A DNA stretch of 64,000 nucleotides from an uncultured Ignavibacteria bacterium (GCA_937870915.1 CALMZQ010000221.1:999-64998), one strand, 5' to 3'. Counted from the stretch's first letter, positions 12,977 through 49,900 are shown. Notes: a model not told the origin generated them from the sequence alone. Translations and numbers: made by a program.

Positions 12977-14062
12977 TTAGGGTTGGTTTTCGGAGTCATC
13001 GGGCGATTGACGAACATCTCCGAGAGTACGTGTAAGAACGCTTGACATCAATTGCACGATCGAGATCATCCGACCATAATCCATCCTACGTGGACCGATA
13101 ATTCCAAGAGATCCTGTGGCATGTCCTGCACGGTAGGTTGTAGCGATCATTGCATAATCTCGCATGTCGGTCTCGGCAAACTCGTTGCCTATGGTCACCG
13201 AAACCCGCCCTGGTTCTGTTGCAGATCCAAGGAGGTGAACGATAACGTCCTCATTCTCCACAAGTTCGATAACGCTACGGAGTCGATCCGGGGCTTCAAA
13301 CTCAGGCTGTGTGATCAGATTCTGCGCACCGGATATATGCACCATGCCACCCGCCTTTGTGGAGACAAGATTCCCAACCTGCTCCACGAACAACCTGAAC
13401 AGCGATGGGGTAGGGTTTGAGGAGGGGGCAAGCAGTTCGGAGAGCATTGCTGTGATCGATGAGAGTGGTCTGCCTGCCAATCTCTCGTTGAGCTGACGGG
13501 ATACAGCCTCTACCGTGCCATGCTCGATCAACTCATTTGTCTCGAGAGTGAGCGTGCGGACGATGTCGCTGTCAAGGGCTATAACAACGAGCAGTCGCTC
13601 GCTTGACAGAGGAATCAATTCCACTCGCTGCACAAGGGCTTCACGAAGTAATGGAAGCTGAACCATGGCAAGGTGTCGGCTCAACGAACCGAGAATCCGC
13701 GAAGCATCGCGCATCACACTCTCCCGCGGGAGCGCGAGTAGGTCAGAAACCACCTGATCGGTCTCGTGGGTTGGTAGCCGGCCAATATCCACAAGGGAAT
13801 CAACGTAGAATCGATACCCTAGATCTGTGGGCATTCTTCCTGCTGAGGTATGGGGATGTGTGATATATCCCATCGCCTCGAGGTCCGACATGGTGTTGCG
13901 TATTGTTGCCGGACTCAGGGGTAGAGAACGTTCCAAATACCGAGAAACAACACGCGACCCTACTGGTGTAGCATGAAGGATAAAGAGCTGAACGATCGCA
14001 CGCAGGATCGCACGCTCTCGGTCGTTCAATTCTCGATGGTCCGCCGGAACGATTACAGACAT
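12977..14062 (-). CDS. hrcA: Heat-inducible transcription repressor HrcA
   Basis: PVGSR, SPATIRNTMSDLE.MGYI.HPHTSAGRMPT, GIIGPRRMDY. Confidence 0.96.
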   Translation of the reverse strand: MSVIVPADHRELNDRERAILRAIVQLFILHATPVGSRVVSRYLERSLPLSPATIRNTMSDLEAMGYITHPHTSAGRMPTDLGYRFYVDSLVDIGRLPTHETDQVVSDLLALPRESVMRDASRILGSLSRHLAMVQLPLLREALVQRVELIPLSSERLLVVIALDSDIVRTLTLETNELIEHGTVEAVSRQLNERLAGRPLSSITAMLSELLAPSSNPTPSLFRLFVEQVGNLVSTKAGGMVHISGAQNLITQPEFEAPDRLRSVIELVENEDVIVHLLGSATEPGRVSVTIGNEFAETDMRDYAMIATTYRAGHATGSLGIIGPRRMDYGRMISIVQLMSSVLTRTLGDVRQSPDDSENQP

Positions 14063-14071
14063 CGCGTTCCC

Positions 14072-16666
14072 TTAGGCCGAAACAACAGAGAAGTAGAACC
14101 TGACAAATGAGAAGGCATCATAGGACGCATTCCACGAGATCAGGATGGCAACGAGTGCAACAGCTACTAAACCGAGTCCGATCGAATACACAATCGTTGA
14201 TGGCACGTCGAAAACAACCGATGTGGCTCGCAGCGTACGCATAAGAGACCAAATCGTGAGTGCTATCACTAGCAAGGGAACCCACAAGGACAAGGCGTCG
14301 GTACTCAATGCCTGATAGAGGGCCACACCAATAGGGAGTAATACCACAAGTGGCAAGGCCGACCAAACAACTATCGTGAGTGTGTCGCGGAAATAGATCC
14401 GTGCCTTAATGAACATCGAGCCCACACGGAGGAGGAATGCAGCGAAAACGAAGAGCCCCATAACTACTGCAGACCACAGGGGGACAGCAAGTGTTGGTCT
14501 CCACGAAACAAACCGAACAATGTCATAGGCAACATTGGAGGGAATGAGTAGGTGGAGCAGGTATTCGATCTCGGCATCAACCCGCACATAATACAGCAGT
14601 GATGAAATGACTAGTCCTACGCAGCTGGCAATAACGATACCCAGGAACGATGTCTGAACCGCAGACAGAATACGCTGATCTCGAATATCTGCATAGAAAT
14701 TGTACGGACGGGCAATGGCACGAAGCAGGTACTCGCGGAATCGGCGAGAGCGATTGATCAAGAAGGTCATGATCAATGCAAGGATGATACCCGCAGCAAT
14801 GAATACGAGTGGTGTGTCAAAGGCGGCATCACGAGCTTGAAGAAGGGGCTCCTTCTCATCGTTGATGAGTGACTTTAACATTGCATAAGAAATGCGTGGT
14901 TGGCGCCATACATCGAGAAGTCCGGATGTGCAGACATAGGCGTCATAGTGGTCAACCAACATCGTTGGACGCTCAAGCGAAAAGTCTACAAAGGACCAAA
15001 TCATCACTCCAGCTAGTCCGGCAGACATCGAGGCACGGAAACAATCGCGCACAACAAGAGCCTGCGCCTCATTTGAGAGTGGGTCACTGAAACCATTGGT
15101 GTTGCTTGGTGAGAGGCGAGAGCCAAATTCTGTGAGAACAGCAGCGGAGCGAAAGGCTTTTGGCAGCGCTTGAACGATGCGCTCGAAACGTGTGCGGTCC
15201 TGTGTTGTACTGAACCTGACAACGATGATGTCGAATCCGCCTTCGCTCGTACGATCGTAAAGTCCAGCGGGTACAACCTTGAACAACATCTTTGTGGACA
15301 GTTTCCGATACAACTGCACAAGATCGGCGTGGTACTGAGCAACGGCATCAGAACCTTCTTCGAGTCCGTCACTTAGACCAATGGCTATCACAGAGGGATG
15401 TGTGTCGAGGTACGAGATAGACCGCTCAGATGCATTTCGATAACGAGCAAGGAGTTCTTCTTGGAGGATCATGTCCGATGGAACGTCAGATGTTGGCAGC
15501 TCCGCCATTACCATAAGTCCGTATCTGTCGCAAAGGCTGAGGAAATACGGGTGAGGGCTTCCATTGCGGACACGTACTACATTCACCCCAAGGGTCTTCA
15601 TCAACGAAACGTCGAGTTCCATCTGACGCCATGACATCGATGGTCCGCGGTTGGGATAGTCGTCAACATAATCAACGGCATAGATCGGTATGATCGAATC
15701 GTTGATCGAGATCTGACGTCCGCGGTCGGTGCTAACAACTCCGATAGAGCGGAATCCGACTGGTGTTTCATAGATATCTATAAGCTGACCGTCTCTCTCG
15801 ATCCTGACAACAAGGTCGTAGAGATTCGGTGAAGCAACACTCCATCGCTGTGGATTGGAAACCGACATCTGAAAACTGACAATCTGCTGTCTGGAACGTT
15901 CGATCGTTACCGAGGACGATCCCGTCCGCGCTACCACCTGTCCGCCATCGCGTGATCTCAGCATGGCCTCAACAGAAACCGTCGTCTTCCCCTGCGCAAG
16001 TGCATCACCGCCCAGGGTAGAGCCAAGTAGACGTTCTACAGTTCCGCCAACAATTGTGGCCTTAACATTCATCGACCCTACACCCGACGTTATCGTGCTC
16101 CGCGTTCGAACGTCATTGGTCCATACATGCGGAGTGCCGACAAGAAACACTTCCCGCAGGAGCCCCATGTGGCGAGATCTCGATGACCGTGCAAATCCTT
16201 CCACAAGTGCGGTGAGTTCGCTCGTGGGTGACACAACAAGCTCAACAGTATTTGTGCCGGGGACTAAAACTCTGTCCGGAATGCGAATCCCAAATGGCAC
16301 CATGCCACCCGGATATCGCATGATGAATCTCCCATTAACCCGAAGCTCTATCTCATCAACCACCCCGAGGACTTGAAGATGCCAGGTGTGTTTGCCTAGT
16401 GTAGCCTGTTCGATGCGAATTGTCCGCCGAAGGATCACCGGTGATCGAGCATCCAAGGAACCCGGTATAGAAACCGTTTCCAAGGGAACCCCATCATTCA
16501 TTCGTTGCCACTGTCCACTTAAGTTGATGATCGTTCGTGTCTCAGAAGGCATGAACGTGGCTACCTGTTGGGGACCAAGTTGCGTGTACTCAGAAAAATC
16601 CGCTGCCAACAGACAGAGTGAGGAGATGGAGAGAAAGAGGAGGACGAGGGCGTATCGTTGCGTCAT
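14072..16666 (-). CDS. Glycoside hydrolase family 2-like protein fused to a C-terminal multi-pass membrane domain
   Basis: Signal peptide; GH2 sugar-binding/Ig/TIM features (LSGQW, RWS..SPNLYDL, GFRSI, LGVNVVR, CDRYGLMV, HPSVI, TEFG); about 6 TM helices after residue ~620; start set to the ATG at 16666. Confidence 0.75.
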   Translation of the reverse strand: MTQRYALVLLFLSISSLCLLAADFSEYTQLGPQQVATFMPSETRTIINLSGQWQRMNDGVPLETVSIPGSLDARSPVILRRTIRIEQATLGKHTWHLQVLGVVDEIELRVNGRFIMRYPGGMVPFGIRIPDRVLVPGTNTVELVVSPTSELTALVEGFARSSRSRHMGLLREVFLVGTPHVWTNDVRTRSTITSGVGSMNVKATIVGGTVERLLGSTLGGDALAQGKTTVSVEAMLRSRDGGQVVARTGSSSVTIERSRQQIVSFQMSVSNPQRWSVASPNLYDLVVRIERDGQLIDIYETPVGFRSIGVVSTDRGRQISINDSIIPIYAVDYVDDYPNRGPSMSWRQMELDVSLMKTLGVNVVRVRNGSPHPYFLSLCDRYGLMVMAELPTSDVPSDMILQEELLARYRNASERSISYLDTHPSVIAIGLSDGLEEGSDAVAQYHADLVQLYRKLSTKMLFKVVPAGLYDRTSEGGFDIIVVRFSTTQDRTRFERIVQALPKAFRSAAVLTEFGSRLSPSNTNGFSDPLSNEAQALVVRDCFRASMSAGLAGVMIWSFVDFSLERPTMLVDHYDAYVCTSGLLDVWRQPRISYAMLKSLINDEKEPLLQARDAAFDTPLVFIAAGIILALIMTFLINRSRRFREYLLRAIARPYNFYADIRDQRILSAVQTSFLGIVIASCVGLVISSLLYYVRVDAEIEYLLHLLIPSNVAYDIVRFVSWRPTLAVPLWSAVVMGLFVFAAFLLRVGSMFIKARIYFRDTLTIVVWSALPLVVLLPIGVALYQALSTDALSLWVPLLVIALTIWSLMRTLRATSVVFDVPSTIVYSIGLGLVAVALVAILISWNASYDAFSFVRFYFSVVSA

Positions 16667-38826: not shown

Positions 38827-41800
38827 TCATTGAGTACTGACCCTTACGTTTTCCTCAACTCCTATCTCGCGTGTATCTGTACCACCGGCATAGGAGAGAT
38901 GTCCATGATATCCTCCGATGACATTCGTTAGCACACGTACGTCTTCTACCATCACTCCTCGCCAGTGAGCGGTTCCATGCAAAGTGCCCTTTACAACAAG
39001 TGATGCATTACGAAGATCAGTACGGAAGAGATCGCGGATCTCCGGACGTACTACACACTGAAGAAAGCCTGTCTCATCTTCGATAGTCACAAAGAGCATA
39101 CCGTGTGCTGTTGCGGGCGCTTGACGTAATATGACGATCCCTGCGGTTGTAACGCGGAGTCCAGGTGTTACGGCCAAACGTTTGATCACTTCAATCGGAC
39201 GTACTTCAAGATCAGTAAGCCCCCTTCGATAGAGCGTCATAGGATGCAACCTCGCTGCTCCATGGGTGATGTAGTCATATGCAAGTCGTTCCTGTGCACG
39301 CAACTCGGGAAGTAGTGGTATGTCCTCTTCATGAAGCAATGGAGAGTGTATCAGTGGTGTGGGATTACCTGATGCTCGTCGTTTGACAACACCCACCATC
39401 CACATAGCTCTACGTGCATCGGCTTCCCAGGGCTCCATAGCACCAGCGAGTGCAAGTGCATCAAGAGCATCACGTGGCACGTCAGGTAGGCGAACTACAA
39501 TGTCCTCGATGCTGGTAAATGGTGCGCGAGAACGCTCCCAGACGATCATTCGTGCTACATGTTCACTTACATGTGAAACACTGGTAAGGGGCTTGCGGAT
39601 TGCCGTTGTTCCGTCGGGCATGGTTTCGAGTGCATAGCGCATACCGGAGTAGATCATGTTGGGAAGTAGAACGTTCACGCCACAACGGCGTGATTCTTCC
39701 TCCAAGGTCATAAGGTTATACATACCCGGACGATGTTGCATGAAGGCCGCCATGTATGCGGCTGCATGATGAGTTTTAAGCCATGCACTCTGGTAGACGA
39801 TCTTGGCAAATGCAGCAGCATGAGATCTACAGAAGCCATACCCTACAAAGTGCGAGACCTTTTCATAGACATTCTCTGCGCTGATACGGTCTACACCACG
39901 CAACATCGCTCCTTGAATGAATCGCTCTCTCATAGCCTCCATGAGGACACGGTCGCGATTCTTAGATACCAGTGCACGAAAGTCATCGGCTTCATCAAGA
40001 GGCATACCGGCAAACTTGTGAGCAATCTCCAGTACCTGTTCTTGAAAGAGGACAATGCCTAGAGTGTCCTTCAGTATGGGTTCTAGGTCCGGGTGGAGGT
40101 AGGTGATAGGTTGTATGCCTTTACGTCGTGCGATGTACGGATGTACCATTCCGCCTTGGAGCGGACCCGGACGGAACAGTGCTACTTCCGTCACAAGGTC
40201 GTCAAAAGATTCCGGTTGATGTTTCGCTAACAGGTGCATTTGACCCTGAGACTCTATTTGAAACACGCCTAATGTGCGACCGCTGCGAATAAGGTCAAAT
40301 GTGGCGGGGTCATCTAAAGGAAGTTCATCAACATCGAGTGTCTCGCCGGTATGCTGCATGAAAAGTTCAATGGTCTCGCTTATGCAGGCTAACATCCTGA
40401 GTCCTAGCACATCGAATTTCACAAGCCCCATTGCCTCAACATCATCTTTGTCGAATTGAACAACGGCAACACCATTGGCCGAGCGTTGTACCGGTGTGAG
40501 ATCCGTAAGTGGACGGGAAGAGAGGATCATGCCTCCGGAATGAAGGCCAAGATGACGTGGATGATCAAGAAGCAGATGAACAGCACGCATGAGGACATCG
40601 AGCAGGGGGATATCTCCGCATACAGCTGCGAGATCTGCACGATACTCCGTCACATCCTTGTTTGTCCACGACGGTACACATTTCGATAGTTTGTTCACAG
40701 TCTCCATTGGCCAACCAAGCGCCTTTGCAGCATCACGTACGGCCATACGAGCACGGTACATGATCAGCGTGGCTGTCATGGCTGTCCTGTTCGTTCCAAA
40801 TCGTTCTTCCATCCACGCAATCACTTCATCCCGTCTGTCGCTATCAAAGTCAACATCGATATCTGGTGTACCCTTTCGCCCCCTATGAAGAAATCGTTCA
40901 AAGAGGAGGTGATGTTTGATGGGGCATACGCCGGTGATACCAAGGAGGTAGGCTACGATTGAGTTGGCTGCAGAGCCACGCCCGGAACATCGGATGCCGC
41001 GACGTTTTGACTCGTCGACTACTTCCTTCACCACAAGAAAGAAGTCCGACAGTTGTAGATCGCCTATCACACGCAGCTCATGTTCAAGCAACGTTCTGGC
41101 CTTCTCTTCACGTCCGGTGTATCGTAGTGGAAATGTTATCTCACACGCATTTCGTAGCACTTCATGAGCAACCTCCCCGGGCTTCAATTGAGCTGAAGGG
41201 GGCGTAATGTGCTCCGGAATTATGTTGAATGAACATTGTTGAATGATATCACGAACATGCTCGAATGCCTCTGGCCAAGGAAGGAGCGAACGCAATTCAT
41301 CTTCGCTCCGTAGACAATGCCTGTCATTGACTGGACGTTGAGGATGGGGCTCATGGATCGTGATGCCATGGCGTATGCACGTCATTAGGTCATGCGTTGC
41401 ATATCTATCGCGGACAGCATACCTAACATCCTGAGCGATCACACATGGAAGCGAATGCACCTTAGCCAGTTCTACGATTTGTGCTGCACGGCGCCTAGCC
41501 CATGGCCTTCCATCGTGTCCAATTCCAACATACGTCAGCTTCTTGGGGAGTTTCTGAAGTACTTCTTCCACCACTACACGTTCAGCCGAAAGCCCGTGCA
41601 GAATGAGAATACACCGATTAAGTATTGATAGCCTGTTATAGATCTCGCAATCATCTTCAGCGCGAAGCACAGTTACAAGCTCACAGATCTCTGCGTATCC
41701 TTTCTGATCCTTAGCGAGTACTGTTACTACTGTGCCGTTACACTCCAGATCCGTTCCAATGATCGGCTGTAAACCGTACTCAATACATGCCTGCTGAAGT

Positions 41801-41943
41801 CGTACCGCTGCAAACACCCCCAATGTGTCGGTTAGAGCCAATGCCACATGGCCAAGTCGTACAGATTCTACTACATACTCTTCCGGAGACGAAGCACCGT
41901 CTAGAAAGGAGAAATGTGAACGGGTGTGGAGGGAAGCAAACAT
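38827..41943 (-). CDS. dnaE2: Error-prone DNA polymerase III alpha subunit DnaE2 (ImuC)
   Basis: PHP start H..SHFSFLDGASSP, GRGSAANS, FERF, catalytic PDIDVDF, PRHLGLHSGG, KFDVLGL, GVFQIES, YGFCRSHAAAFA, RQAP.TA.G.LFVTIEDETG; start set to the ATG at 41943. Confidence 0.93.
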   Translation of the reverse strand: MFASLHTRSHFSFLDGASSPEEYVVESVRLGHVALALTDTLGVFAAVRLQQACIEYGLQPIIGTDLECNGTVVTVLAKDQKGYAEICELVTVLRAEDDCEIYNRLSILNRCILILHGLSAERVVVEEVLQKLPKKLTYVGIGHDGRPWARRRAAQIVELAKVHSLPCVIAQDVRYAVRDRYATHDLMTCIRHGITIHEPHPQRPVNDRHCLRSEDELRSLLPWPEAFEHVRDIIQQCSFNIIPEHITPPSAQLKPGEVAHEVLRNACEITFPLRYTGREEKARTLLEHELRVIGDLQLSDFFLVVKEVVDESKRRGIRCSGRGSAANSIVAYLLGITGVCPIKHHLLFERFLHRGRKGTPDIDVDFDSDRRDEVIAWMEERFGTNRTAMTATLIMYRARMAVRDAAKALGWPMETVNKLSKCVPSWTNKDVTEYRADLAAVCGDIPLLDVLMRAVHLLLDHPRHLGLHSGGMILSSRPLTDLTPVQRSANGVAVVQFDKDDVEAMGLVKFDVLGLRMLACISETIELFMQHTGETLDVDELPLDDPATFDLIRSGRTLGVFQIESQGQMHLLAKHQPESFDDLVTEVALFRPGPLQGGMVHPYIARRKGIQPITYLHPDLEPILKDTLGIVLFQEQVLEIAHKFAGMPLDEADDFRALVSKNRDRVLMEAMRERFIQGAMLRGVDRISAENVYEKVSHFVGYGFCRSHAAAFAKIVYQSAWLKTHHAAAYMAAFMQHRPGMYNLMTLEEESRRCGVNVLLPNMIYSGMRYALETMPDGTTAIRKPLTSVSHVSEHVARMIVWERSRAPFTSIEDIVVRLPDVPRDALDALALAGAMEPWEADARRAMWMVGVVKRRASGNPTPLIHSPLLHEEDIPLLPELRAQERLAYDYITHGAARLHPMTLYRRGLTDLEVRPIEVIKRLAVTPGLRVTTAGIVILRQAPATAHGMLFVTIEDETGFLQCVVRPEIRDLFRTDLRNASLVVKGTLHGTAHWRGVMVEDVRVLTNVIGGYHGHLSYAGGTDTREIGVEENVRVSTQ

Positions 41944-41944
41944 G

Positions 41945-42124
41945 GAACAGCGAACATTAACAGCGAACGCAGAACAGCGAACAGCGAACCTTAGTGAATA
42001 GGGGAAACGTAGAAGAAATATACAAAATGTACATCCTTCATTCTCTACGCAATTCGCTGTTCTGGATTCGCTGTTCGCTGTTAACATTCTCTATTCGCTA
42101 TTCGCTATTCTCTATTCGCTATTC
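41945..42124. repeat. Two inverted arrays of heptamer repeats (GAACAGC versus TTCGCTG/TTCGCTA) flanking a ~60-bp spacer
   Basis: 41945-41989 GAACAGCGAACATTAACAGCGAACGCAGAACAGCGAACAGCGAAC; 42052-42124 ATTCGCTGTTCTGGATTCGCTGTTCGCTGTTAACATTCTCTATTCGCTATTCGCTATTCTCTATTCGCTATTC. Confidence 0.85.
42017..42031. promoter_or_regulatory. Candidate SOS-like operator upstream of dnaE2 (TACA-N3-TGTA)
   Basis: AATATACAAAATGTA, identical to 48334-48348; extends to the near-palindrome ATATACAAAATGTACAT. Confidence 0.6.
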
Positions 42125-43026
42125 TTCATCCACGTCCGTTCCAACACAGAAGTAGCGATGTAGTCAACTTTCAGCCCATTATTTGTTACCATTCTGTTCG
42201 TTGTGCTGAAAGCTCTCATGTATCCGCGGTTTACATATCGCTCCATAGTTGCATGAGAGATTGATATAGTGCCGTACGCAGGGATACGTTTCATCGTTAC
42301 GGCCATATAGGCTATCTGATCGTTGCCGGTTCCTGAAAGTGAATCCACACGAACTGTTCGAAAAAGCGTATCAAGCTTCTCGTTCATAACAACGGTCTTC
42401 TCTGGGCCGAATGTATGGCCGATATTCTGTATGGCTGAGCGAAGAGATAACGTATCAGTATAGGACTTGCCAATCATGGTCATAGTCTCGCCCCTTGCAA
42501 ATGGAGCTAACAATGCAAATTCTGTAGGAAAGGTCATTACAAGTGACGTTTGTGCCTCTGAGTCCATTGTTCTGGAGATCACACTTCCTAGGCTATTACC
42601 ATCGTCCGTGGATGACATCATGTCATGACTAGCCATCATTATGCGTCCATAAGGATCTAACGTGGCTTCATACTGAGGGGAAGCCCATGCCAATCGAACG
42701 CCCGTGATGCTCATTTCACCCTTCTTAGAGAAGAGGAGGGTGTCAGATTTCAGCAGGTCTCGCATGGTTCTCATTTTTACAGCTACACGAACGTTGCCCA
42801 CTTCGTCGCGGTCTATGATCTCCAACTGGTATACAGCAGGCACACATACACCTTTGTCATTCATCACATGCTGGTCAATTCGCAGGTGATAGGAGAGTAT
42901 CCTACCAATAGCAAGGTCGCTCGTACCTTGATCTTGCACCATGCCCGGTCCCGATTGTTCATTCTGTCCACTTGCAACCTGGTAGATCAAGAGAGCAAGG
43001 ACAGAGACACACAGGAAGTTCTTCAT
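42112..43026 (-). CDS. Secreted hypothetical protein, tandem paralog 1 of 4
   Basis: Signal peptide (ASG-Q), GAGGTG RBS, shared motif GR.L.Y.LR.DQ.V...GVC.PA.Y....DRD..GN.RV. Confidence 0.8.
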   Translation of the reverse strand: MKNFLCVSVLALLIYQVASGQNEQSGPGMVQDQGTSDLAIGRILSYHLRIDQHVMNDKGVCVPAVYQLEIIDRDEVGNVRVAVKMRTMRDLLKSDTLLFSKKGEMSITGVRLAWASPQYEATLDPYGRIMMASHDMMSSTDDGNSLGSVISRTMDSEAQTSLVMTFPTEFALLAPFARGETMTMIGKSYTDTLSLRSAIQNIGHTFGPEKTVVMNEKLDTLFRTVRVDSLSGTGNDQIAYMAVTMKRIPAYGTISISHATMERYVNRGYMRAFSTTNRMVTNNGLKVDYIATSVLERTWMKNSE

Positions 43027-43149
43027 CTCGCCACCTCTTTGTAATTCGGACAAGACAGTCCGAATATATGACGACGCCTTATAGATAGCAAGGAAAAGTT
43101 TTCATACGTGAAAAAACGTATACTAGAGGTAGAATTAGTGAGTAGGGGG

Positions 43150-44085
43150 CTACTTTTTCACTGTACTCGAATCCAATATCGAGGTAGCGATGTATTCAGG
43201 AATCAAGCCGGGTATGCCTTCCTTACGGCTAGTAGTTTCAAAGGTCTTCATATACCCCTTTTTTACATACCGTTGCATAATGGACGTGGCAATGGAATGT
43301 ACACCATAGACCGGGTGGCGCTCCATCCGAACCGTCATATGAGCAACCTCATCGTCACCACTACCAGAAAGTGAGTCTATGGTGACTGCTCGAATGATTG
43401 TATCCTGGTTCAAGCGTGGTTGTTTCTCTGATTCTGACCCAGTTGTATGACCGATCTTTTGGATCGTCGATGTGATCAAAAGGGTGTCTACATATGCCGT
43501 ACCAATAATGAACGAATTTGATTCGCGTAGATATGGGGCCAAAAGCGCATACTCCGTAGGTATGGTAGAGAGTACTTGCGTCATTGCATCGGAGTCTGTT
43601 ATGCGCGGCAGAACTGTCCCCATGGTGATCGTTTCTGGAGTTGTAGACTCGAACTGTGCGTTAGTAAACATAACCCTGCCATACGCGTCGAGGGTGGCTT
43701 CGTATCTAGGAATTGTAAATGCAAGGCGTACACCAATGATCTTCAATTCTCTAGACTTTGTCATAAAGAGCGTATCGGATGATATCAATTCACCAGCCGA
43801 TCTCATTTGAACAGATACGCGTGAATTGCCAGCCTCATCTCGGTCAAGAATTGTAATCGTATACGTGGCAGGTATACATACCCCTCTACCGTTCACAACG
43901 TGCTGATCAACTCTGAGCCGGTAGGTCAGAACCCTGCCAGGCACCAATTCCGTGTATGCTTTGTCATTGAGTATCCCTGGCCCCACACGAACATCCGGAC
44001 CATTGTCTCCATTCTGACCTCGACTCACATTGGCAGAAAGAATGAAGACGCACAAAACAAATGGTAAAGAGACGGTCTTGATCAT
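43150..44085 (-). CDS. Secreted hypothetical protein, tandem paralog 2 of 4
   Basis: Signal peptide (SRG-Q), same shared motif, C-terminal PEYIATSILD. Confidence 0.8.
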   Translation of the reverse strand: MIKTVSLPFVLCVFILSANVSRGQNGDNGPDVRVGPGILNDKAYTELVPGRVLTYRLRVDQHVVNGRGVCIPATYTITILDRDEAGNSRVSVQMRSAGELISSDTLFMTKSRELKIIGVRLAFTIPRYEATLDAYGRVMFTNAQFESTTPETITMGTVLPRITDSDAMTQVLSTIPTEYALLAPYLRESNSFIIGTAYVDTLLITSTIQKIGHTTGSESEKQPRLNQDTIIRAVTIDSLSGSGDDEVAHMTVRMERHPVYGVHSIATSIMQRYVKKGYMKTFETTSRKEGIPGLIPEYIATSILDSSTVKK

Positions 44086-44207
44086 GGCATCACCTCAGAG
44101 TAGATGGTTTGACGACGTCAGATCAGCTATCACGAACTTCTACACAAGAACAGTAGTGTGGTAATGTTCGGGTGTACGAGTGCCGTAAGTAATATAGCGT
44201 ATGAAAC

Positions 44208-45140
44208 TCACCTATCCATCGTACTCGTATCGAGAATGGAGGTTGCGATGTATTCAGGAATGGGGCTGGTAGATCCCACCTTCCTACTGGTGGTAACAAA
44301 GGACTTCATATAGCCCTTTTTTATGTAGCGTTCCATAACCGAGATCGCAACCGAAGGCATTCCGTAAACAGGGTAACGCTCCATACGAACGGTCATATGT
44401 GCGAGCTCATCGTTACCACTTCCAGAGACTGAATCGATCGTCACCGTTCGAATGATAGTATCCTGAGCCTCTTTCGGCTGGGGCCTTGTCTCGGTTCCTA
44501 TAGTTCTGCCAATCTTTTGGATTGCAGAGGTAAATAGTATTGTGTCTTTATACGGTCTTCCTACGAGAATGGAGGTTGCCCCTTGTAGATACGGTGCCAT
44601 GAGGGCGTATTCTGTTGGGATAGTGGAAAGGACGTTTGCCATTGCATCCGAGTCCGTTATCCGAGACTCAACGTTACCCATCGTACTTGATTCTTGGGAC
44701 ATTGCGTCTAATTGTTCATTTGTATATAGAACCCTGCCATTTACGTCCAAGGTTGCTTCATACTTGGGAATTGCAAAAGCAAGGCGCACCCCAACGATCT
44801 TCATCACCGTTGACTTTGAGAGAAAGATCGTGTCAGACGCAATGAGCTCGCCTGCGGATCGCATTTCAACTGAAACACGTGAGTTGCCAGCAGCATCTCT
44901 ATCGAGTATTGCTATCGAATATATAGCTGGTATACATACGCCTCTTCCATGTACAACATGTTGGTCAACCCTGAGTTTATACGTTAGGACTCTACCAGGA
45001 GTAAGCTCTGTGTATGCCTTGTCGTTGAGAACTTCAGGCCCTACCTGAATAATCGGTGTATCGCTGGTGTCTTGCCCCTTACTCACGCCAATTGAGATAA
45101 AGATCAAACAGAAATGGACCGTCAAGGCAAGTAGTTTCAT
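44208..45140 (-). CDS. Secreted hypothetical protein, tandem paralog 3 of 4
   Basis: Signal peptide (SKG-Q), same shared motif, most similar to paralog 2. Confidence 0.8.
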   Translation of the reverse strand: MKLLALTVHFCLIFISIGVSKGQDTSDTPIIQVGPEVLNDKAYTELTPGRVLTYKLRVDQHVVHGRGVCIPAIYSIAILDRDAAGNSRVSVEMRSAGELIASDTIFLSKSTVMKIVGVRLAFAIPKYEATLDVNGRVLYTNEQLDAMSQESSTMGNVESRITDSDAMANVLSTIPTEYALMAPYLQGATSILVGRPYKDTILFTSAIQKIGRTIGTETRPQPKEAQDTIIRTVTIDSVSGSGNDELAHMTVRMERYPVYGMPSVAISVMERYIKKGYMKSFVTTSRKVGSTSPIPEYIATSILDTSTMDR

Positions 45141-45277
45141 TACGTTTACTCGAGTCAGATGCCGACAGTAAGCAAAACTACTTACTTCCGTTCTACGCGA
45201 GAAGGTACTTTATAGTTTCCTCCAATTCTATTTCTGGTGAAATACTTTAAAAAGAACTCTCTTTGAGCCGTTTAAGG

Positions 45278-46207
45278 CTATTTGGTGTCTTCTAAGGAAT
45301 TGTTAATCCAGGAACGTTCAAGTACGGTGGTTGCCACGTAGTCCAGCCGTAAACCTTTATTCGTGACCAAGTTGTTTGTTGTTTTGAATGACTTCATATA
45401 GCCGCGGCTTACGTAGCGTTCCATGGTTGCTTGGACGATAGATTCTGCTCCGTGTGAGGAAGATCGATTCATAACAACCTTCATATACGCGATCTGGTCA
45501 GGCCCTGCACCTGAGAGCGAGTCGACACGAACTTTCCTGATCACTATATCGTGTATCTCCTTTACGCTTGAAGTGCTATCGGGGCCATATGTATGACCGA
45601 TTGCTTGCATGCTCGATCGAATGGTGAGAGTATCAACATATTCTTTACCAACCTCTGTCATAAATGCCCCGTGTTGATAGGGGGCTAACAATGCTAACTC
45701 AGTAGGGAATGTTACTGCAACTGAAGAAACGGCCTCATAGTCAGTTGTGCGGGAAAGTACTGACCCCATAGTTCTTGCGGCTTCAGTGTGTCCGGGTAGT
45801 TCGTCACGTGCACGTAACAGACGGCCGAATTTGTCGAGTGTAGCTTCGTATTTCGGTGATATCCACGCCATTCGAAAACCCACGATCTTCAGTTCTCCAC
45901 TTTGCGAAGCAAAGAGAGTATCAGTAGTTAAGAGCTCTCTCATTGTTCGTACTTGTACCCCAACACGAACGTTACCTGCGGCATCGCGATCTAATACCTC
46001 TAACTGATAGACTGCCGGGATACATACACCTTTATCTTTAACCACACTTTGGTCTACCCGCAAATGATACGTAAGAACTCTGCCGGGTACGAGTTCTGAT
46101 TCAGCGTTCATCTTGCTGCTGTGCGATTCCATTCGCTCAGTCTGTGCGCTCGCCTCTACTGTCAAGAACAAAGAGACGCAATGAAGAAGTACGAGAGCTT
46201 TCATCAT
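45278..46207 (-). CDS. Secreted hypothetical protein, tandem paralog 4 of 4
   Basis: Signal peptide (ASA-Q), same shared motif, C-terminal DYVATTVLERSW like paralog 1. Confidence 0.8.
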   Translation of the reverse strand: MMKALVLLHCVSLFLTVEASAQTERMESHSSKMNAESELVPGRVLTYHLRVDQSVVKDKGVCIPAVYQLEVLDRDAAGNVRVGVQVRTMRELLTTDTLFASQSGELKIVGFRMAWISPKYEATLDKFGRLLRARDELPGHTEAARTMGSVLSRTTDYEAVSSVAVTFPTELALLAPYQHGAFMTEVGKEYVDTLTIRSSMQAIGHTYGPDSTSSVKEIHDIVIRKVRVDSLSGAGPDQIAYMKVVMNRSSSHGAESIVQATMERYVSRGYMKSFKTTNNLVTNKGLRLDYVATTVLERSWINNSLEDTK

Positions 46208-46278
46208 GTCACCTCTGTTTGGTGCGGAGAATTACGTACGAAGATGTAGCATTGCCGAATTATTACCAAATATTAATT

Positions 46279-46515
46279 TCAATCGAATATTCTCGATAAA
46301 ATCCAGGAGTTCTGGCCGCTTTTATAGACCTCCATTACACCGGAAGTGGTCTCGAGGAGGATATAGTCACGCATTTCATCAATACCCCACCAAGGGCCCC
46401 TACTCGACCATGCATCGAGCACTCGTTCCACGTCGTAAGCACCCCCACGCCAGCATACAACATATGGTGTATTGTTGCGGCACCCAACATCTATCGGTTC
46501 TAGCAGGAGTTTCAT
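46279..46515 (-). CDS. Small protein of the mutagenesis cassette, DUF6504-like / ImuB-C-like
   Basis: WRGGAYDVERVLDAW...GPWW....RDY...W.LSRIFD; ATGA-coupled to the imuB-like gene. Confidence 0.7.
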   Translation of the reverse strand: MKLLLEPIDVGCRNNTPYVVCWRGGAYDVERVLDAWSSRGPWWGIDEMRDYILLETTSGVMEVYKSGQNSWILSRIFD

Positions 46516-47468
46516 TCATTCCCTCTGCGTTCTTGGGAATAGCCTGTAATCCGTGCATATGACTCGGGAACTATGGACCATGGATCTAGGATCTCGATAC
46601 GCTTCATCACGGAGGAATAGCGTGGAATCATAGCTAAGGAGACATCTAGAGCTGTTTTCCGCTCGATGAACAGCTGTGTTTGAATAACACTTGGTTGGGT
46701 AAGTGAAGCCAGCCGTAGCCGCAGACCCCACCAGAGTCGTACTGGGCCTTGTAGATCGCGCAGTAAGGCGCGTGCATGGACCAAGATGGTATCATATGTT
46801 GTGGCACCCTGACGTAGTACTCTACTGCGCTGCGCGCACACGTCATCGGCTCTATCCAGTACTGCAAGCTCAATACGCCAGCAGAGTTTTGGTACAAGTT
46901 CTGATATCACACGAGCACAACATTCTCGCAAGGCTGAGTCTAGGACACCGGGCTCACATTGCACATCATCGAATCGCTCTGAAGAGACGATGGCAGGGGG
47001 CGGAACATAGAGTGGAAGGGGAGGAAATTCTTGTACAAGGAAGGTGTGGAGTTTACTGCCGGCCGTTCCAAACTGAACACGGAGATGACGTTCCTCCAGC
47101 TGCTGCAGGTCTCCTATGGTGCGGATACCAAAGAGCCGTAAGCGTTCTGCGTCGCGTTCATCTAAAGAGAGCTCAGGTATTCGCAGGAGCACGGAGCTAG
47201 GTACATCCTTCGCATTTGCGTAGGCGTCCAAACGTCCTGCCGTTCCGTTGAGTGCACAGAGAAATGCACTTATTCTATCGGGTGCCAACGCAGATAATGC
47301 CTTGGTTCTACGCACGAGCTCACGAAGTCCATTCAGATCATCAGTGCCGGCAAATAGCCTACCATGCCCGGACACTACAAGAAGTGGGGTACAAGCATGT
47401 ACCCGTTCAACAACGGCATCCCATCGGGCGGAGGAGAGAGCCCCTTCCATAACAACGCAGAGAATCAT
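46512..47468 (-). CDS. Y-family polymerase-like accessory protein (ImuB/ImuY-like, probably catalytically inactive)
   Basis: ERLRLFGIRTIGDL HhH/thumb motif, L..QFG..G, little-finger-like region, Q.QLF clamp-binding-like motif; lacks the N-terminal acidic catalytic motif. Confidence 0.75.
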   Translation of the reverse strand: MILCVVMEGALSSARWDAVVERVHACTPLLVVSGHGRLFAGTDDLNGLRELVRRTKALSALAPDRISAFLCALNGTAGRLDAYANAKDVPSSVLLRIPELSLDERDAERLRLFGIRTIGDLQQLEERHLRVQFGTAGSKLHTFLVQEFPPLPLYVPPPAIVSSERFDDVQCEPGVLDSALRECCARVISELVPKLCWRIELAVLDRADDVCAQRSRVLRQGATTYDTILVHARALLRDLQGPVRLWWGLRLRLASLTQPSVIQTQLFIERKTALDVSLAMIPRYSSVMKRIEILDPWSIVPESYARITGYSQERRGNE

Positions 47469-47527
47469 CTGCGATTCTACGAAATGTCAAATGAATTGAC
47501 AAAGCAGATGTGGGCTGGGGGATAAGT

Positions 47528-48298
47528 TTAGAGTTTCTTGATGCAACTGCGAACCACACCAACTATCGTAAAGTCCATGTCGGCTGTGATGGCAATGTCC
47601 TTATACCGTCTGTTTTCAGCCCGCAGAACTGGACGCCCTTCGGCCTTGATATATCGTTTAACGGTGAGTTCGCCGTAGACCTTTGCAATGACGATCTGAC
47701 CAGAACGTGGCTGGATGGCACAATCAACGATAAGAGTGTCTCCATCACTGATTCCTGCGTCAGTCATTGAATCTCCCACCACCCGAATAAAATAGGTGCT
47801 TTCGGGATGTTCAAGAAGCATATCGGCCAGATCAATCTCACGCTCGATCGTGTCATCGGAAGCAGTAGGGAGGCCGGCACTAACTCCCAATGACAACATC
47901 GGAATACGTGGCCCGCGAGCCCCCTTCACTGAACGAGCAGGTGCTACAACAAGGGGCGATTGTGACTTGAGTTCGGCAATTACAGAACGAATGGCTTGCA
48001 CTTGCTCTTCGAGACGGTCTAAAGCGGTTTTTGCCTCGCTGGGAATCGAGTGATGATCAGGGCCTGATGTTCCAAGTGTTGGAGAGCCGGTTCCGGTCAA
48101 GAGCCAACCGGAAGAAATCCCGTAGCGTTTTTCGAGGATGGCCAATACATCCTGGGGTACAGATGTGCGACCAGATTCCCACGAATACACGGTAGGTACC
48201 TTTACCTGCATATGCTTTGCATAGTCAGCCACAGACATCTGAAGGACAGATTCGCGGATCTGACGATGACGGGTGCCGAGCTGGATCTTGGTTTGCAT
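47528..48298 (-). CDS. XRE-HTH plus peptidase S24 (LexA/UmuD-like) self-cleaving repressor
   Basis: HTH (YA..MQV...TVYSWESGRTSVP..WLLTG), VSAG cleavage site, VVGDSM Ser, TVKR Lys; start set to the ATG at 48298. Confidence 0.88.
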   Translation of the reverse strand: MQTKIQLGTRHRQIRESVLQMSVADYAKHMQVKVPTVYSWESGRTSVPQDVLAILEKRYGISSGWLLTGTGSPTLGTSGPDHHSIPSEAKTALDRLEEQVQAIRSVIAELKSQSPLVVAPARSVKGARGPRIPMLSLGVSAGLPTASDDTIEREIDLADMLLEHPESTYFIRVVGDSMTDAGISDGDTLIVDCAIQPRSGQIVIAKVYGELTVKRYIKAEGRPVLRAENRRYKDIAITADMDFTIVGVVRSCIKKL

Positions 48299-48333
48299 AG
48301 GAATACCGTATTCAATTGTGGAAACATGTGGAC

Positions 48334-48348
48334 AATATACAAAATGTA
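48334..48348. promoter_or_regulatory. Candidate auto-operator upstream of the HTH-S24 repressor
   Basis: AATATACAAAATGTA, 35 nt upstream of the ATG, identical to the box upstream of dnaE2. Confidence 0.6.
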
Positions 48349-48379
48349 AAGGTATTTGCATTTATTATGGAGTAGGGGG

Positions 48380-49900
48380 CTATGTGGTGGTGGACTTCTC
48401 GACTGTTTTCAATAGGGACTCGAACATCACTTCGAAGGGGATGAGCTCATTTGTTTCAGAGGGCATGGGATCATGCGAGGAGGCAACAAGCTCCTCGTAA
48501 ATGTCCTTTGTGTTCTTGCGGATCTCGGATGGAATAAACGAGTGTTTGGGAAAACTTTGAATGAGGCGTAAGAATATCCGGACCCTATTGAAGTGCTTTT
48601 CTTTGAGATAGCGCGAGGAATAGACTCGCAGATAGTCGATCCGTTTTTCAGCCGTATCGTAGTCACCATTGATCATGAGGTAGAATACGTGAGACACTAT
48701 GATCAATACGTTATAGACCTTCTTTGACTTTGATTCTTCCGGTAGGGAATTCAGATACGTTGAAAGGCGAAACGTCTTTGCGCGACTCTGTTGCGGTGCA
48801 TACAGACCGAGCTGTTCAGCGAGCAAAAGGTAGGCGCCGTAGATGATCCAGCGCTCCCTTGTATTCTCGGAGAGCATGTTGTACTTGCGATGGGTTGTTG
48901 CCCTCGTGTAGAGGAGTTCAGCCTTTTCATAATCCTGGATATTGATAGCAGCTACAAAGGCAAGGTCAGATGCAAAGTACCAGTTGTTACCTGCTACAGT
49001 GAATGAATCAATACACTTGTCTGAAAGGGTGAAGGCCTCACTATAGCGTCGTAGGTAGAGTGCCGCCGTCATTTTCTGAAGCATGAACTCACCGTGACGT
49101 GCTCGTTGAGACAGATGAGGAACCGAATTCAGGTATTCAATGGCACTGTCACATTCATTGATAACCCCGGAAAAATCCTCAACAAAATCGAAGTAGTTCA
49201 CCGCGGCGCGGAAACTGCTCAACCGCAGGCCATGCGTATTGTGTTCCTTACGCATCGTCTCAACCTTTACCATGGCGTCTTTATGTAGGTCGATCAAATA
49301 GGACCGTTTGCGACTCGTTACCGTCATCTCCATTTTTAAATGGTCGAGCAAAAAGTCTGCATCATATTCACATTTCAATGCGCTCATATGTCGTACCGCT
49401 TCTCGATGATGATGCAGAAACGTGGTGCGCTTGTTCCAAACGGCAGCAGATTCTCGTAACATCACTGCAAGCGAGACGCAGATATCGGTGAACTGATACT
49501 TTTGAGCAATGGTCAGAGTCTTCAACGCTATCGCATAACCAGCACGACGAGATGCAAATCGCATCAAGGTCTGAGCTGCGATCTGGTTGCGCATACATTT
49601 GTAATAGTAGCTCAGGTATTCCGAGTGCTCTGGCTGTTTTACCTGTAAAAAGAGCACGGAGTGCATCAATCGCTCGTACGTACGCGACTTTAGCGTTCGG
49701 TAACGCTGGTCGCTAGATCCCGTTCCATAAAGATCAAGTGCGGCTTCATCATCGTTGGCATATTGATCACTGGCAATACCGATTAGATACCGCCCTGCCA
49801 GTGATGAGGCTGCCTCATCACCCTCGACGAGCTCAGGAAAGACCTTGGCTTTGTCGGATTTCGTTGTAACAATCCGCAATATTTCTTTAAGAATTTCCAT
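48380..49900 (-). CDS. Large alpha-helical hypothetical protein (possible N-terminal HTH-like region plus TPR-like repeats)
   Basis: 506-aa ORF, no signal peptide or TM; helical-repeat patterns (LYLRRYSEAF, INIQDYEKAE, MINGDYDTAE); DDEAALDLYG....RYRTLKSR segment; fold call is an inference. Confidence 0.65.
   Translation of the reverse strand: MEILKEILRIVTTKSDKAKVFPELVEGDEAASSLAGRYLIGIASDQYANDDEAALDLYGTGSSDQRYRTLKSRTYERLMHSVLFLQVKQPEHSEYLSYYYKCMRNQIAAQTLMRFASRRAGYAIALKTLTIAQKYQFTDICVSLAVMLRESAAVWNKRTTFLHHHREAVRHMSALKCEYDADFLLDHLKMEMTVTSRKRSYLIDLHKDAMVKVETMRKEHNTHGLRLSSFRAAVNYFDFVEDFSGVINECDSAIEYLNSVPHLSQRARHGEFMLQKMTAALYLRRYSEAFTLSDKCIDSFTVAGNNWYFASDLAFVAAINIQDYEKAELLYTRATTHRKYNMLSENTRERWIIYGAYLLLAEQLGLYAPQQSRAKTFRLSTYLNSLPEESKSKKVYNVLIIVSHVFYLMINGDYDTAEKRIDYLRVYSSRYLKEKHFNRVRIFLRLIQSFPKHSFIPSEIRKNTKDIYEELVASSHDPMPSETNELIPFEVMFESLLKTVEKSTTT

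Follow-up and report, generated by a model that had tools for sequence, protein, structure and literature searches.

A TAC-N5-GTA palindrome as the predicted operator of an XRE-S24 repressor at an imuB-like/dnaE2 cassette in an uncultured Ignavibacteria bacterium

Described S24 repressors and the present locus

The closest described counterparts of the element considered here come from the Bacteroidetes, where Sanchez-Osuna et al. 2021 described "non-canonical LexA" proteins that combine a helix-turn-helix (HTH) domain (PF01381) with an S24 domain (PMC8565304); our account of these and of the other S24 systems compared below follows that paper. The element itself is a short palindrome that occurs in a 64,000-nucleotide stretch of DNA from an uncultured Ignavibacteria bacterium (GCA_937870915.1 CALMZQ010000221.1:999-64998), which we call the window, at three sites that each lie just upstream of a minus-strand gene, namely a putative dnaE2-type error-prone polymerase gene, the gene of an HTH_XRE-S24 protein and an imuB-like gene. 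We propose that this motif is probably the operator of the XRE-S24 protein (47528-48298), and that the protein would serve as a damage-responsive, self-cleaving repressor of a minimal polymerase regulon.

A diverged paralogue of the non-canonical LexA in Elizabethkingia anophelis binds TTACAAATTGTAA in electrophoretic mobility shift assays, at a position upstream of its own gene and beside a gene for an error-prone polymerase (PMC8565304, Table S10). That site (TTAC-AAATT-GTAA) and ours have the same dyads, TACA-AAT-TGTA or TAC-N5-GTA, around an A/T-rich spacer (PMC8565304). Both lie upstream of the regulator gene near its start, both regulators join an HTH (PF01381) to an S24 domain, and in both an error-prone polymerase is under the same control, as a prediction in our case; what differs here is the lineage, the targets (an imuB-like gene and dnaE2) and an S24 domain that scores as UmuD. 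The original prediction had taken the motif for a new type of box, a claim that must be given up because the dyads match those of the E. anophelis site for which binding is documented (PMC8565304); what is new is the lineage and the variant, while the kind of system is known.

Across the Bacteroidetes the motifs given for non-canonical LexA are CTAA-N5-TTAG and GGA-N5-TCC, the first of which covers imuA-imuB-dnaE2 in some species, and the regulons are broad (recA, recN, ruvB, umuDC and others; about nine operons in some families), the protein family having been reported as exclusive to Bacteroidetes by BLASTP (PMC8565304). The window's protein has in common with that family a CI-like HTH, an S24 domain with Ala-Gly and Ser/Lys, a dyad-N5-dyad site, predicted autoregulation and a genome without canonical LexA, whereas here recA is without a site and the predicted regulon comprises four transcription units. 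It may be either a member of the Bacteroidetes clade or an independent HTH-UmuD fusion.

Two further systems resemble ours in their restricted scope. UmuDAb of Acinetobacter is a self-cleaving protein in which a DNA-binding domain has been added to a UmuD-type S24 domain, and it regulates umuDC operons in a genome without LexA; HdiR of the Streptococcaceae groups with the repressors of Streptococcus phages and depends on Clp processing (PMC8565304). As UmuDAb is described there, a UmuD-type S24 domain behind a DNA-binding domain at the N-terminus and a regulon limited to error-prone polymerases (here predicted) are common to both, the differences being our predicted targets (imuB-like, dnaE2 and Pol IV) and a cleavage site of Ala-Gly. 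With HdiR, again by its description, our protein would have in common a phage-repressor-like HTH joined to S24 and the control, here predicted, of itself and a minimal mutagenic cassette, in a different phylum and with different targets. By analogy, the best reading of the locus is that it would encode a self-cleaving repressor of a minimal polymerase regulon, like UmuDAb or HdiR. Canonical LexA of Bdellovibrio binds the box TTAC-N3-GTAA (PMC8565304). The TAC/GTA half-sites are common to that box and ours, but the Bdellovibrio spacer is two bases shorter.

The LexA-regulated imuA-imuB-dnaE2 cassette is a damage-regulated operon for an inactive Y-family protein and a second DNA polymerase III (Pol III) alpha subunit, and a repressor gene can head it. 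Our cassette differs in that no imuA was detected (with a model that had no power, see below), the ImuB is short (318 amino acids), DUF6504 is encoded by a separate open reading frame (ORF), and the repressor is not a winged-helix LexA. A literature search returned no paper linking Kapabacteria with LexA or a damage response, or imuB/dnaE2 with XRE plus S24.

The repeated site and its conservation

The identical 15-mer AATATACAAAATGTA lies on the plus strand at 42017-42031, before dnaE2, and at 48334-48348, before the HTH-S24 gene, and the variant TACGAAATGTC (47478-47488, plus-strand numbering) stands upstream of the imuB-like gene, all as the original prediction had reported. Read on the coding strand, the sites are TACATTTTGTATATT at the S24 gene and dnaE2 and GACATTTCGTAGAAT at imuB, and directly 3' of the palindrome each has a TAnnnT box; the promoter-like TATATT said to adjoin the palindrome was borne out as a TATATT or TAGAAT -10 box that the palindrome overlaps (Table 1). 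Among 28 unique orthologous sites TAC and GTA are invariant (28/28); inside them stand A/G and T/C, and the outer positions vary. Since only TAC and GTA are invariant while the inner positions vary as purine and pyrimidine, the core is best written TAC-N5-GTA, with TAC(A/G)-TTT-(T/C)GTA as its usual form; the TACA-N3-TGTA core first put forward is the commonest form of the site, but its invariant part is TAC-N5-GTA only.

Table 1. Coordinates of the predicted regulatory elements and the genes of the cassette (numbered from the first letter of the window)
Feature	Position	Strand	Description
Operator O(S24), predicted	48337..48349	-	TTACATTTTGTAT; overlaps -10 box TATATT (48339..48334); 35 nt upstream of S24 ATG; matrix score 21.1, top of genome
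Operator O(imuB), predicted	47489..47477	-	TGACATTTCGTAG; fills spacer, overlaps -10; matrix score 15.7
imuB promoter	47474..47502	-	TTGTCA-17-TAGAAT; holds predicted operator O(imuB)
Operator O(dnaE2) and -10 box, predicted	42017..42032	-	GTACATTTTGTAT; -10 box TATATT (42022..42017); 73 nt upstream of dnaE2 ATG; matrix score 20.6
Repressor gene (XRE-S24)	47528..48298	-	256 aa; HTH_3 (XRE), linker helix, S24 domain; Ala141-Gly142, Ser177, Lys214
imuB-like gene	46512..47468	-	318 aa; putative Y-family polymerase derivative with thumb and little-finger region; ATG 47468
DUF6504 ORF	46279..46515	-	78 aa; PF20114, E 1e-5; present in all 19 genus cassettes
Four tandem paralogues	45278-46207, 44208-45140, 43150-44085, 42112-43053	-	about 310 aa, signal peptides; between DUF6504 gene and dnaE2
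Putative dnaE2-type error-prone Pol III alpha gene	38827..41943	-	1038 aa; ATG 41943; Pfam domains

Neither the identity of the two 15-mers nor the abundance of the motif excludes chance. Thirty Markov simulations gave a mean of 2.3 direct 15-mer pairs in random 64-kb sequence; for the generic TACA-N3-TGTA the 3.32-Mb genome has 45 copies where about 46 would be expected, and the window three where 0.67 would be, a count that 5 of 100 shuffles reach. The exact 11-mer core has two copies in the genome, which are the two 15-mer sites. Being at chance level genome-wide, the generic motif was dropped as a regulon probe, and a 13-mer weight matrix built from the 28 unique orthologous sites took its place. 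The case thus rests on placement and on conservation in relatives, both of which exceed chance.

S24 orthologues were found in 23 of the 24 other genus genomes of a first sample, and counting the window all 24 genus loci have a conserved block some 35-45 nt upstream of the S24 start, the proteins being 70-100% identical. For the cassette itself we compared 18 genus cassettes with the window (19 in all), scanning for the pattern AC[AG]N3[TC]GTAN3T. The site precedes the S24 gene in 19/19 and imuB in 18/19, the exception being L044, which has 16 nt between the stop of S24 and the start of imuB. The gene order S24 - imuB-like - DUF6504 - dnaE2 is kept in 13 cassettes, while in the other six further genes part dnaE2 from DUF6504, and a third site stands before dnaE2 in all six of these split cassettes and in none of the 13 compact ones. 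The split ones are the window with its four paralogues, the close relative L035 with a single paralogue, and L040-43, where the insert is about 3.5 kb and in L040 consists of two opposite-strand genes, PIG-L and DUF2911/TPR. Because the six fall in at most two clades, the gain of the third site represents one or two evolutionary events, not six. The best explanation is that dnaE2 carries its own predicted promoter-operator copy since insertion broke the operon, as four foreign genes cut dnaE2 off from the imuB promoter in the window. As a prediction, the assignment of the motif to the XRE-S24 protein as its operator has fared well, the site being kept before that protein's own gene, imuB and dnaE2 across the genus.

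The original prediction had allowed that the motif might be only a housekeeping promoter variant, and its distribution is not that of one. A pattern of operator plus -10 box, ACRTTTYGTAKAWT, was matched 50 times, in 28 of 29 genus genomes, and its reversed control three times; 44 of the 50 are on the same contig as the S24 cassette. As for the six outliers, two are at a Pol IV start codon, those in G003 and G016 have no repair gene nearby, and the remaining two are in G023 (contig C171) and G008 (contig C375). The information content of 43 sites peaks at AC-TTTTGTA, at the -10 box and at a TTGT -35-like element 17 nt upstream of the -10, and the flanks are unconserved.

Beyond the genus, CTAC-N5-GTAG palindromes precede S24 genes whose products are 42-65% identical, often in pairs 20-22 bp apart. 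Relatives with a 54-65% identical protein have CTAC(A/G)TTTTGTAG, often with a second site 22 bp downstream, and have S24 and imuB together in a single operon; in one relative at 42% identity two sites stand at a distance of 20 bp, and in the most divergent protein group the motif shifts slightly, to AAC-N5-GTAA. An imuB-like profile found nothing in 5/5 order-level genomes that lack the S24 protein, in a search that had no positive control.

At the promoters themselves, the imuB promoter matches the sigma-70 consensus at 10 of 12 positions and is the best sigma-70-like one in 41850-48450; its palindrome occupies the 3' part of the spacer and covers the first two bases of the -10. With 5 nt between the -10 and the imuB ATG, and 8 nt between the -10 and the dnaE2 ATG in L040-43, the spacing suggests that imuB mRNA, and dnaE2 mRNA in L040-43, would be leaderless. 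The Bacteroidetes -7 box is TAnnTTTG, and judged by eye the sites do not fit it. The dnaE2 promoter of the window is flanked by two heptamer arrays in inverted orientation, 6.6 copies of GAACAGC (41945-41989) and 11 of CGCTATT (42048-42124; Tandem Repeats Finder), which form an inverted repeat (41945..42124) with 54-nt arms that are 72% complementary; a read-through transcript from upstream could fold both into a long hairpin. The downstream array makes up most of the 73-nt dnaE2 leader, and in relatives similar heptamer arrays take up the intergenic space ahead of the S24 gene and of Pol IV.

The XRE-S24 protein, its cassette and the predicted regulon

The protein, whose ATG we fixed at 48298 from its orthologues, has an N-terminal HTH (PF01381, E 4.1e-6, 27.2 bits with the cut-off at 23) and an S24 domain (PF00717, 98 bits), and a structure model gives five helices at residues 2-68 followed by a long linker helix. 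A141, G142, S177 and K214 are invariant in nine aligned sequences down to 43% identity. The protein reaches 126 bits with the UmuD model NF007621 (Pol V autoproteolytic subunit; cut-off 110) and 82 bits with the LexA model (cut-off 110.95), and the best PDB match is UmuD (1.5e-23), with LexA at about 1e-13; judged by such sequence models, the S24 domain is of the UmuD type. Homologues in the databases are labelled "Pol V autoproteolytic subunit". A LexA DNA-binding domain (LexA_DNA_bind, PF01726) was found neither in the protein nor anywhere in the genome (97% complete), and a search of the genome turned up no second strong S24 gene and no separate umuD.

Across the genus the N-terminal 130 residues are 55-80% identical, and the C-terminal half hardly varies at all. 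Full-length relatives occur only in records that for the most part bear the name Kapabacteria, Kapaibacterium, Ignavibacteria or Chlorobiota, and searches with the full length and with residues 1-130 return the Kapabacteria-type family and stand-alone UmuD only. The N-terminal half has strong matches in its own family and in just one further family of the order; weak ones (E 1e-4 to 1e-6) come from additional XRE-S24 proteins in the phylum whose operators are different, and in an N-terminal profile search of 1.84 billion proteins the matches were swamped by multi-HTH proteins. From these searches no link in sequence to the Bacteroidetes proteins emerged. In three members of other families of the same class (L166, L170, L171), 216-residue XRE-S24 proteins have the sequence WLLTGEG in common with the window's protein, and their genes are preceded by a near-perfect palindrome, ACGACAT-N2-ATGTCGT, the left half of which is like the CGACAT of many genus S24 sites. 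The S24 orthologue of L052 (G015) matches in two pieces (residues 2-193 and 195-257), which may reflect a frameshift or faulty assembly. A 506-residue ORF (48380-49900, minus strand) directly upstream of the S24 promoter matched no Pfam or NCBIfam family, and its C-terminus is conserved beside the S24 gene in some relatives.

A profile of 14 orthologues of the imuB-like protein matches Pol IV (7yll, E 3.3e-6) over residues 99-285; the protein itself has weak NCBIfam Pol IV matches and a weak IMS_HHH match, and Pfam found no IMS palm domain (PF00817) in it. Its stop overlaps the start of the DUF6504 ORF by 4 nt (ATGA, 46512-46515), and the split into a 318-residue core and a 78-residue module in another frame recurs in all 19 cassettes. 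The DUF6504 ORF probably represents the C-terminal module of ImuB, now separate from it; of 14 control genomes, Caulobacter vibrioides was the sole one positive for the DUF6504 family. The ImuA model NF033429 matched recA only, below its cut-off, and since it also stayed below cut-off in all 14 controls this negative carries no power. Of the NCBIfam models, NF004225 ("error-prone DNA polymerase") fits dnaE2 best, at 854.9 bits, under its cut-off of 939, with DnaE at 658 bits. The idea that the dnaE2 gene had been replaced was dropped, since dnaE2 is 60-86% identical across the genus. The four paralogues between DUF6504 and dnaE2 (42112-46207) are 43-65% identical to one another and absent from 17 of the 19 cassettes; no Pfam family matched them, and a structure search of the Atlas places them near DUF6263 (TM-score 0.66).

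Within this genome, conserved sites occur only at the cassette and at one DinB-family (PF05163) gene on contig C118, which has a matrix site 49 nt upstream. This gene is present in 4 of 29 genus genomes and has the site in 4/4, one of them with an otherwise unrelated flank. Twenty-five Pol IV orthologues were found and 24 scanned, one being left out (its match starts at residue 12): a TTAC/TGAC-N5-GTA site ends 1 nt before the ATG in 11/24, and 13/24, including the clade of this genome, are without one. The predicted regulon is minimal and centred on error-prone polymerases, with recA outside it, and is not a full SOS network. At the Pol IV start, the operator present in relatives has been lost from the clade of this genome. 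On contig C212 of this genome a short ORF that by eye looks antitoxin- or HTH-like stands immediately before Pol IV (13395-14606, minus strand).

Predicted mechanism, alternative readings and meaning

The mechanism we propose is that a dimer of the XRE-S24 protein would bind the palindrome in the spacer of sigma-70-like promoters, overlapping the first bases of the -10. Because the palindrome is so placed, the bound dimer would exclude RNA polymerase by covering the -10 or the start site. In this genome the repressed targets would be the protein's own gene, imuB-like/DUF6504, dnaE2 and the DinB-family gene on another contig. DNA damage would lead to RecA filaments, these to self-cleavage at Ala141-Gly142 by the Ser177/Lys214 dyad, and cleavage would free the promoters; the duplicated promoter-operator before dnaE2 would restore the control lost on insertion of the four paralogue genes. 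The operator appears real and well conserved, while binding, repression, RecA-dependent cleavage and induction are what we infer for it from sequence.

Several observations weigh against this reading. In the window, the S24 and dnaE2 promoters combine a good -10 with a poor -35, and every site has a spacer rich in T on the coding strand; because the conserved block includes the -10, some of the conservation is owed to the promoter and not to the operator, and the promoter modules may have a common origin. Genome-wide, the matrix finds six sites scoring at least 18 against a mean of 3.0 (range 1-6) in five Markov genomes, which is no enrichment, and two of the high-scoring sites are inside ORFs (contigs C29 and C227). 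Another, equally high-scoring and between an RDD gene and prfB (contig C3), was set aside as chance because it is kept in none of five relatives, and serves as a negative control. recA and Pol IV of this genome are without a site (best matrix scores 7.2 and 1.7), so that the expectation of one upstream of recA and dinB, as first proposed, fails here. In the relatives with a site at Pol IV, the start codon and the site's TAGAAT/TATAAT tail overlap, and for that reason the tail cannot be the Pol IV -10.

These points lead to the alternative that the element is a shared promoter module only, a -10 with an upstream extension copied within the cassette, to which no repressor binds. The fixed orientation and T-rich spacer at all 43 sites and the -10 within the conserved block are what such a module would give, and the dnaE2 modules of the window, L035 and L040-43 are alike beyond the palindrome (a TTCTAC tail), which suggests common descent. 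Spacers normally vary freely, however, yet TAC and GTA are invariant in every one of the unique sites; distant relatives keep a perfect CTAC-N5-GTAG, sometimes as two sites two helical turns apart; the Pol IV site abuts the ATG, where its tail could not act as a -10; the element is essentially restricted to damage-related genes; and in E. anophelis an identical dyad is proven as the site of a repressor (PMC8565304). We therefore regard a promoter without an operator as quite unlikely. Alternatively, the operator might be real but bound by a transcription factor other than the adjacent XRE-S24 protein, given that the assignment rests on adjacency and analogy. This we hold to be very unlikely, for the site precedes the S24 gene itself in all 19 cassettes and in relatives down to 42% identity, the S24 gene and the imuB-like gene are present or missing together, the motif shifts slightly (AAC-N5-GTAA) along with the most divergent protein group, and the XRE-S24 protein, which has an HTH, is the sole LexA-like candidate in the genome. 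That the two 15-mers are a coincidence, or a functionless remnant of a local duplication, is in keeping with the number of 15-mer pairs expected in 64 kb and with the arithmetic of the 11-mer (about 1.6 copies expected in the genome by length alone, two seen), but we find it barely credible: the two copies, at two promoters of the one cassette, hold the same position relative to the -10, 28 other genomes keep orthologous sites with flanks that diverge, and loss of the site in close relatives without loss of the gene was not seen.

Returning to the XRE-S24 protein as the repressor of its own cassette, we also consider, as an extension that we think rather unlikely, that the protein is bifunctional. 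Intact, it would repress the cassette; cleaved at Ala141-Gly142 in response to RecA, it would end the repression and supply a UmuD'-like fragment as accessory subunit in place of ImuA to an ImuA-less ImuB-like/DnaE2 mutasome. The hints are that the S24 domain passes the UmuD cut-off and is far more conserved than the HTH half, and that neither imuA (with the model that had no power) nor a separate umuD was found. If this were true, one and the same cleavage event would both transcribe and activate the polymerase.

The operator proposed here would extend the control of error-prone polymerases by S24-family repressors other than LexA to a deep, uncultured branch of Kapabacteria type that is without canonical LexA, and it supports the view that the silencing of mutagenic polymerases by a self-cleaving repressor evolves repeatedly. 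The split cassettes amount to a natural experiment, in which the operator has been duplicated exactly where an insertion breaks the operon. The annotation "Pol V autoproteolytic subunit" would, for these proteins, hide a transcription factor. The presence of a UmuD-like domain beside an ImuB-like protein raises a testable link between Pol V and ImuB/DnaE2, and for this uncultured soil bacterium the possible second role of the UmuD-like fragment is the most interesting point.

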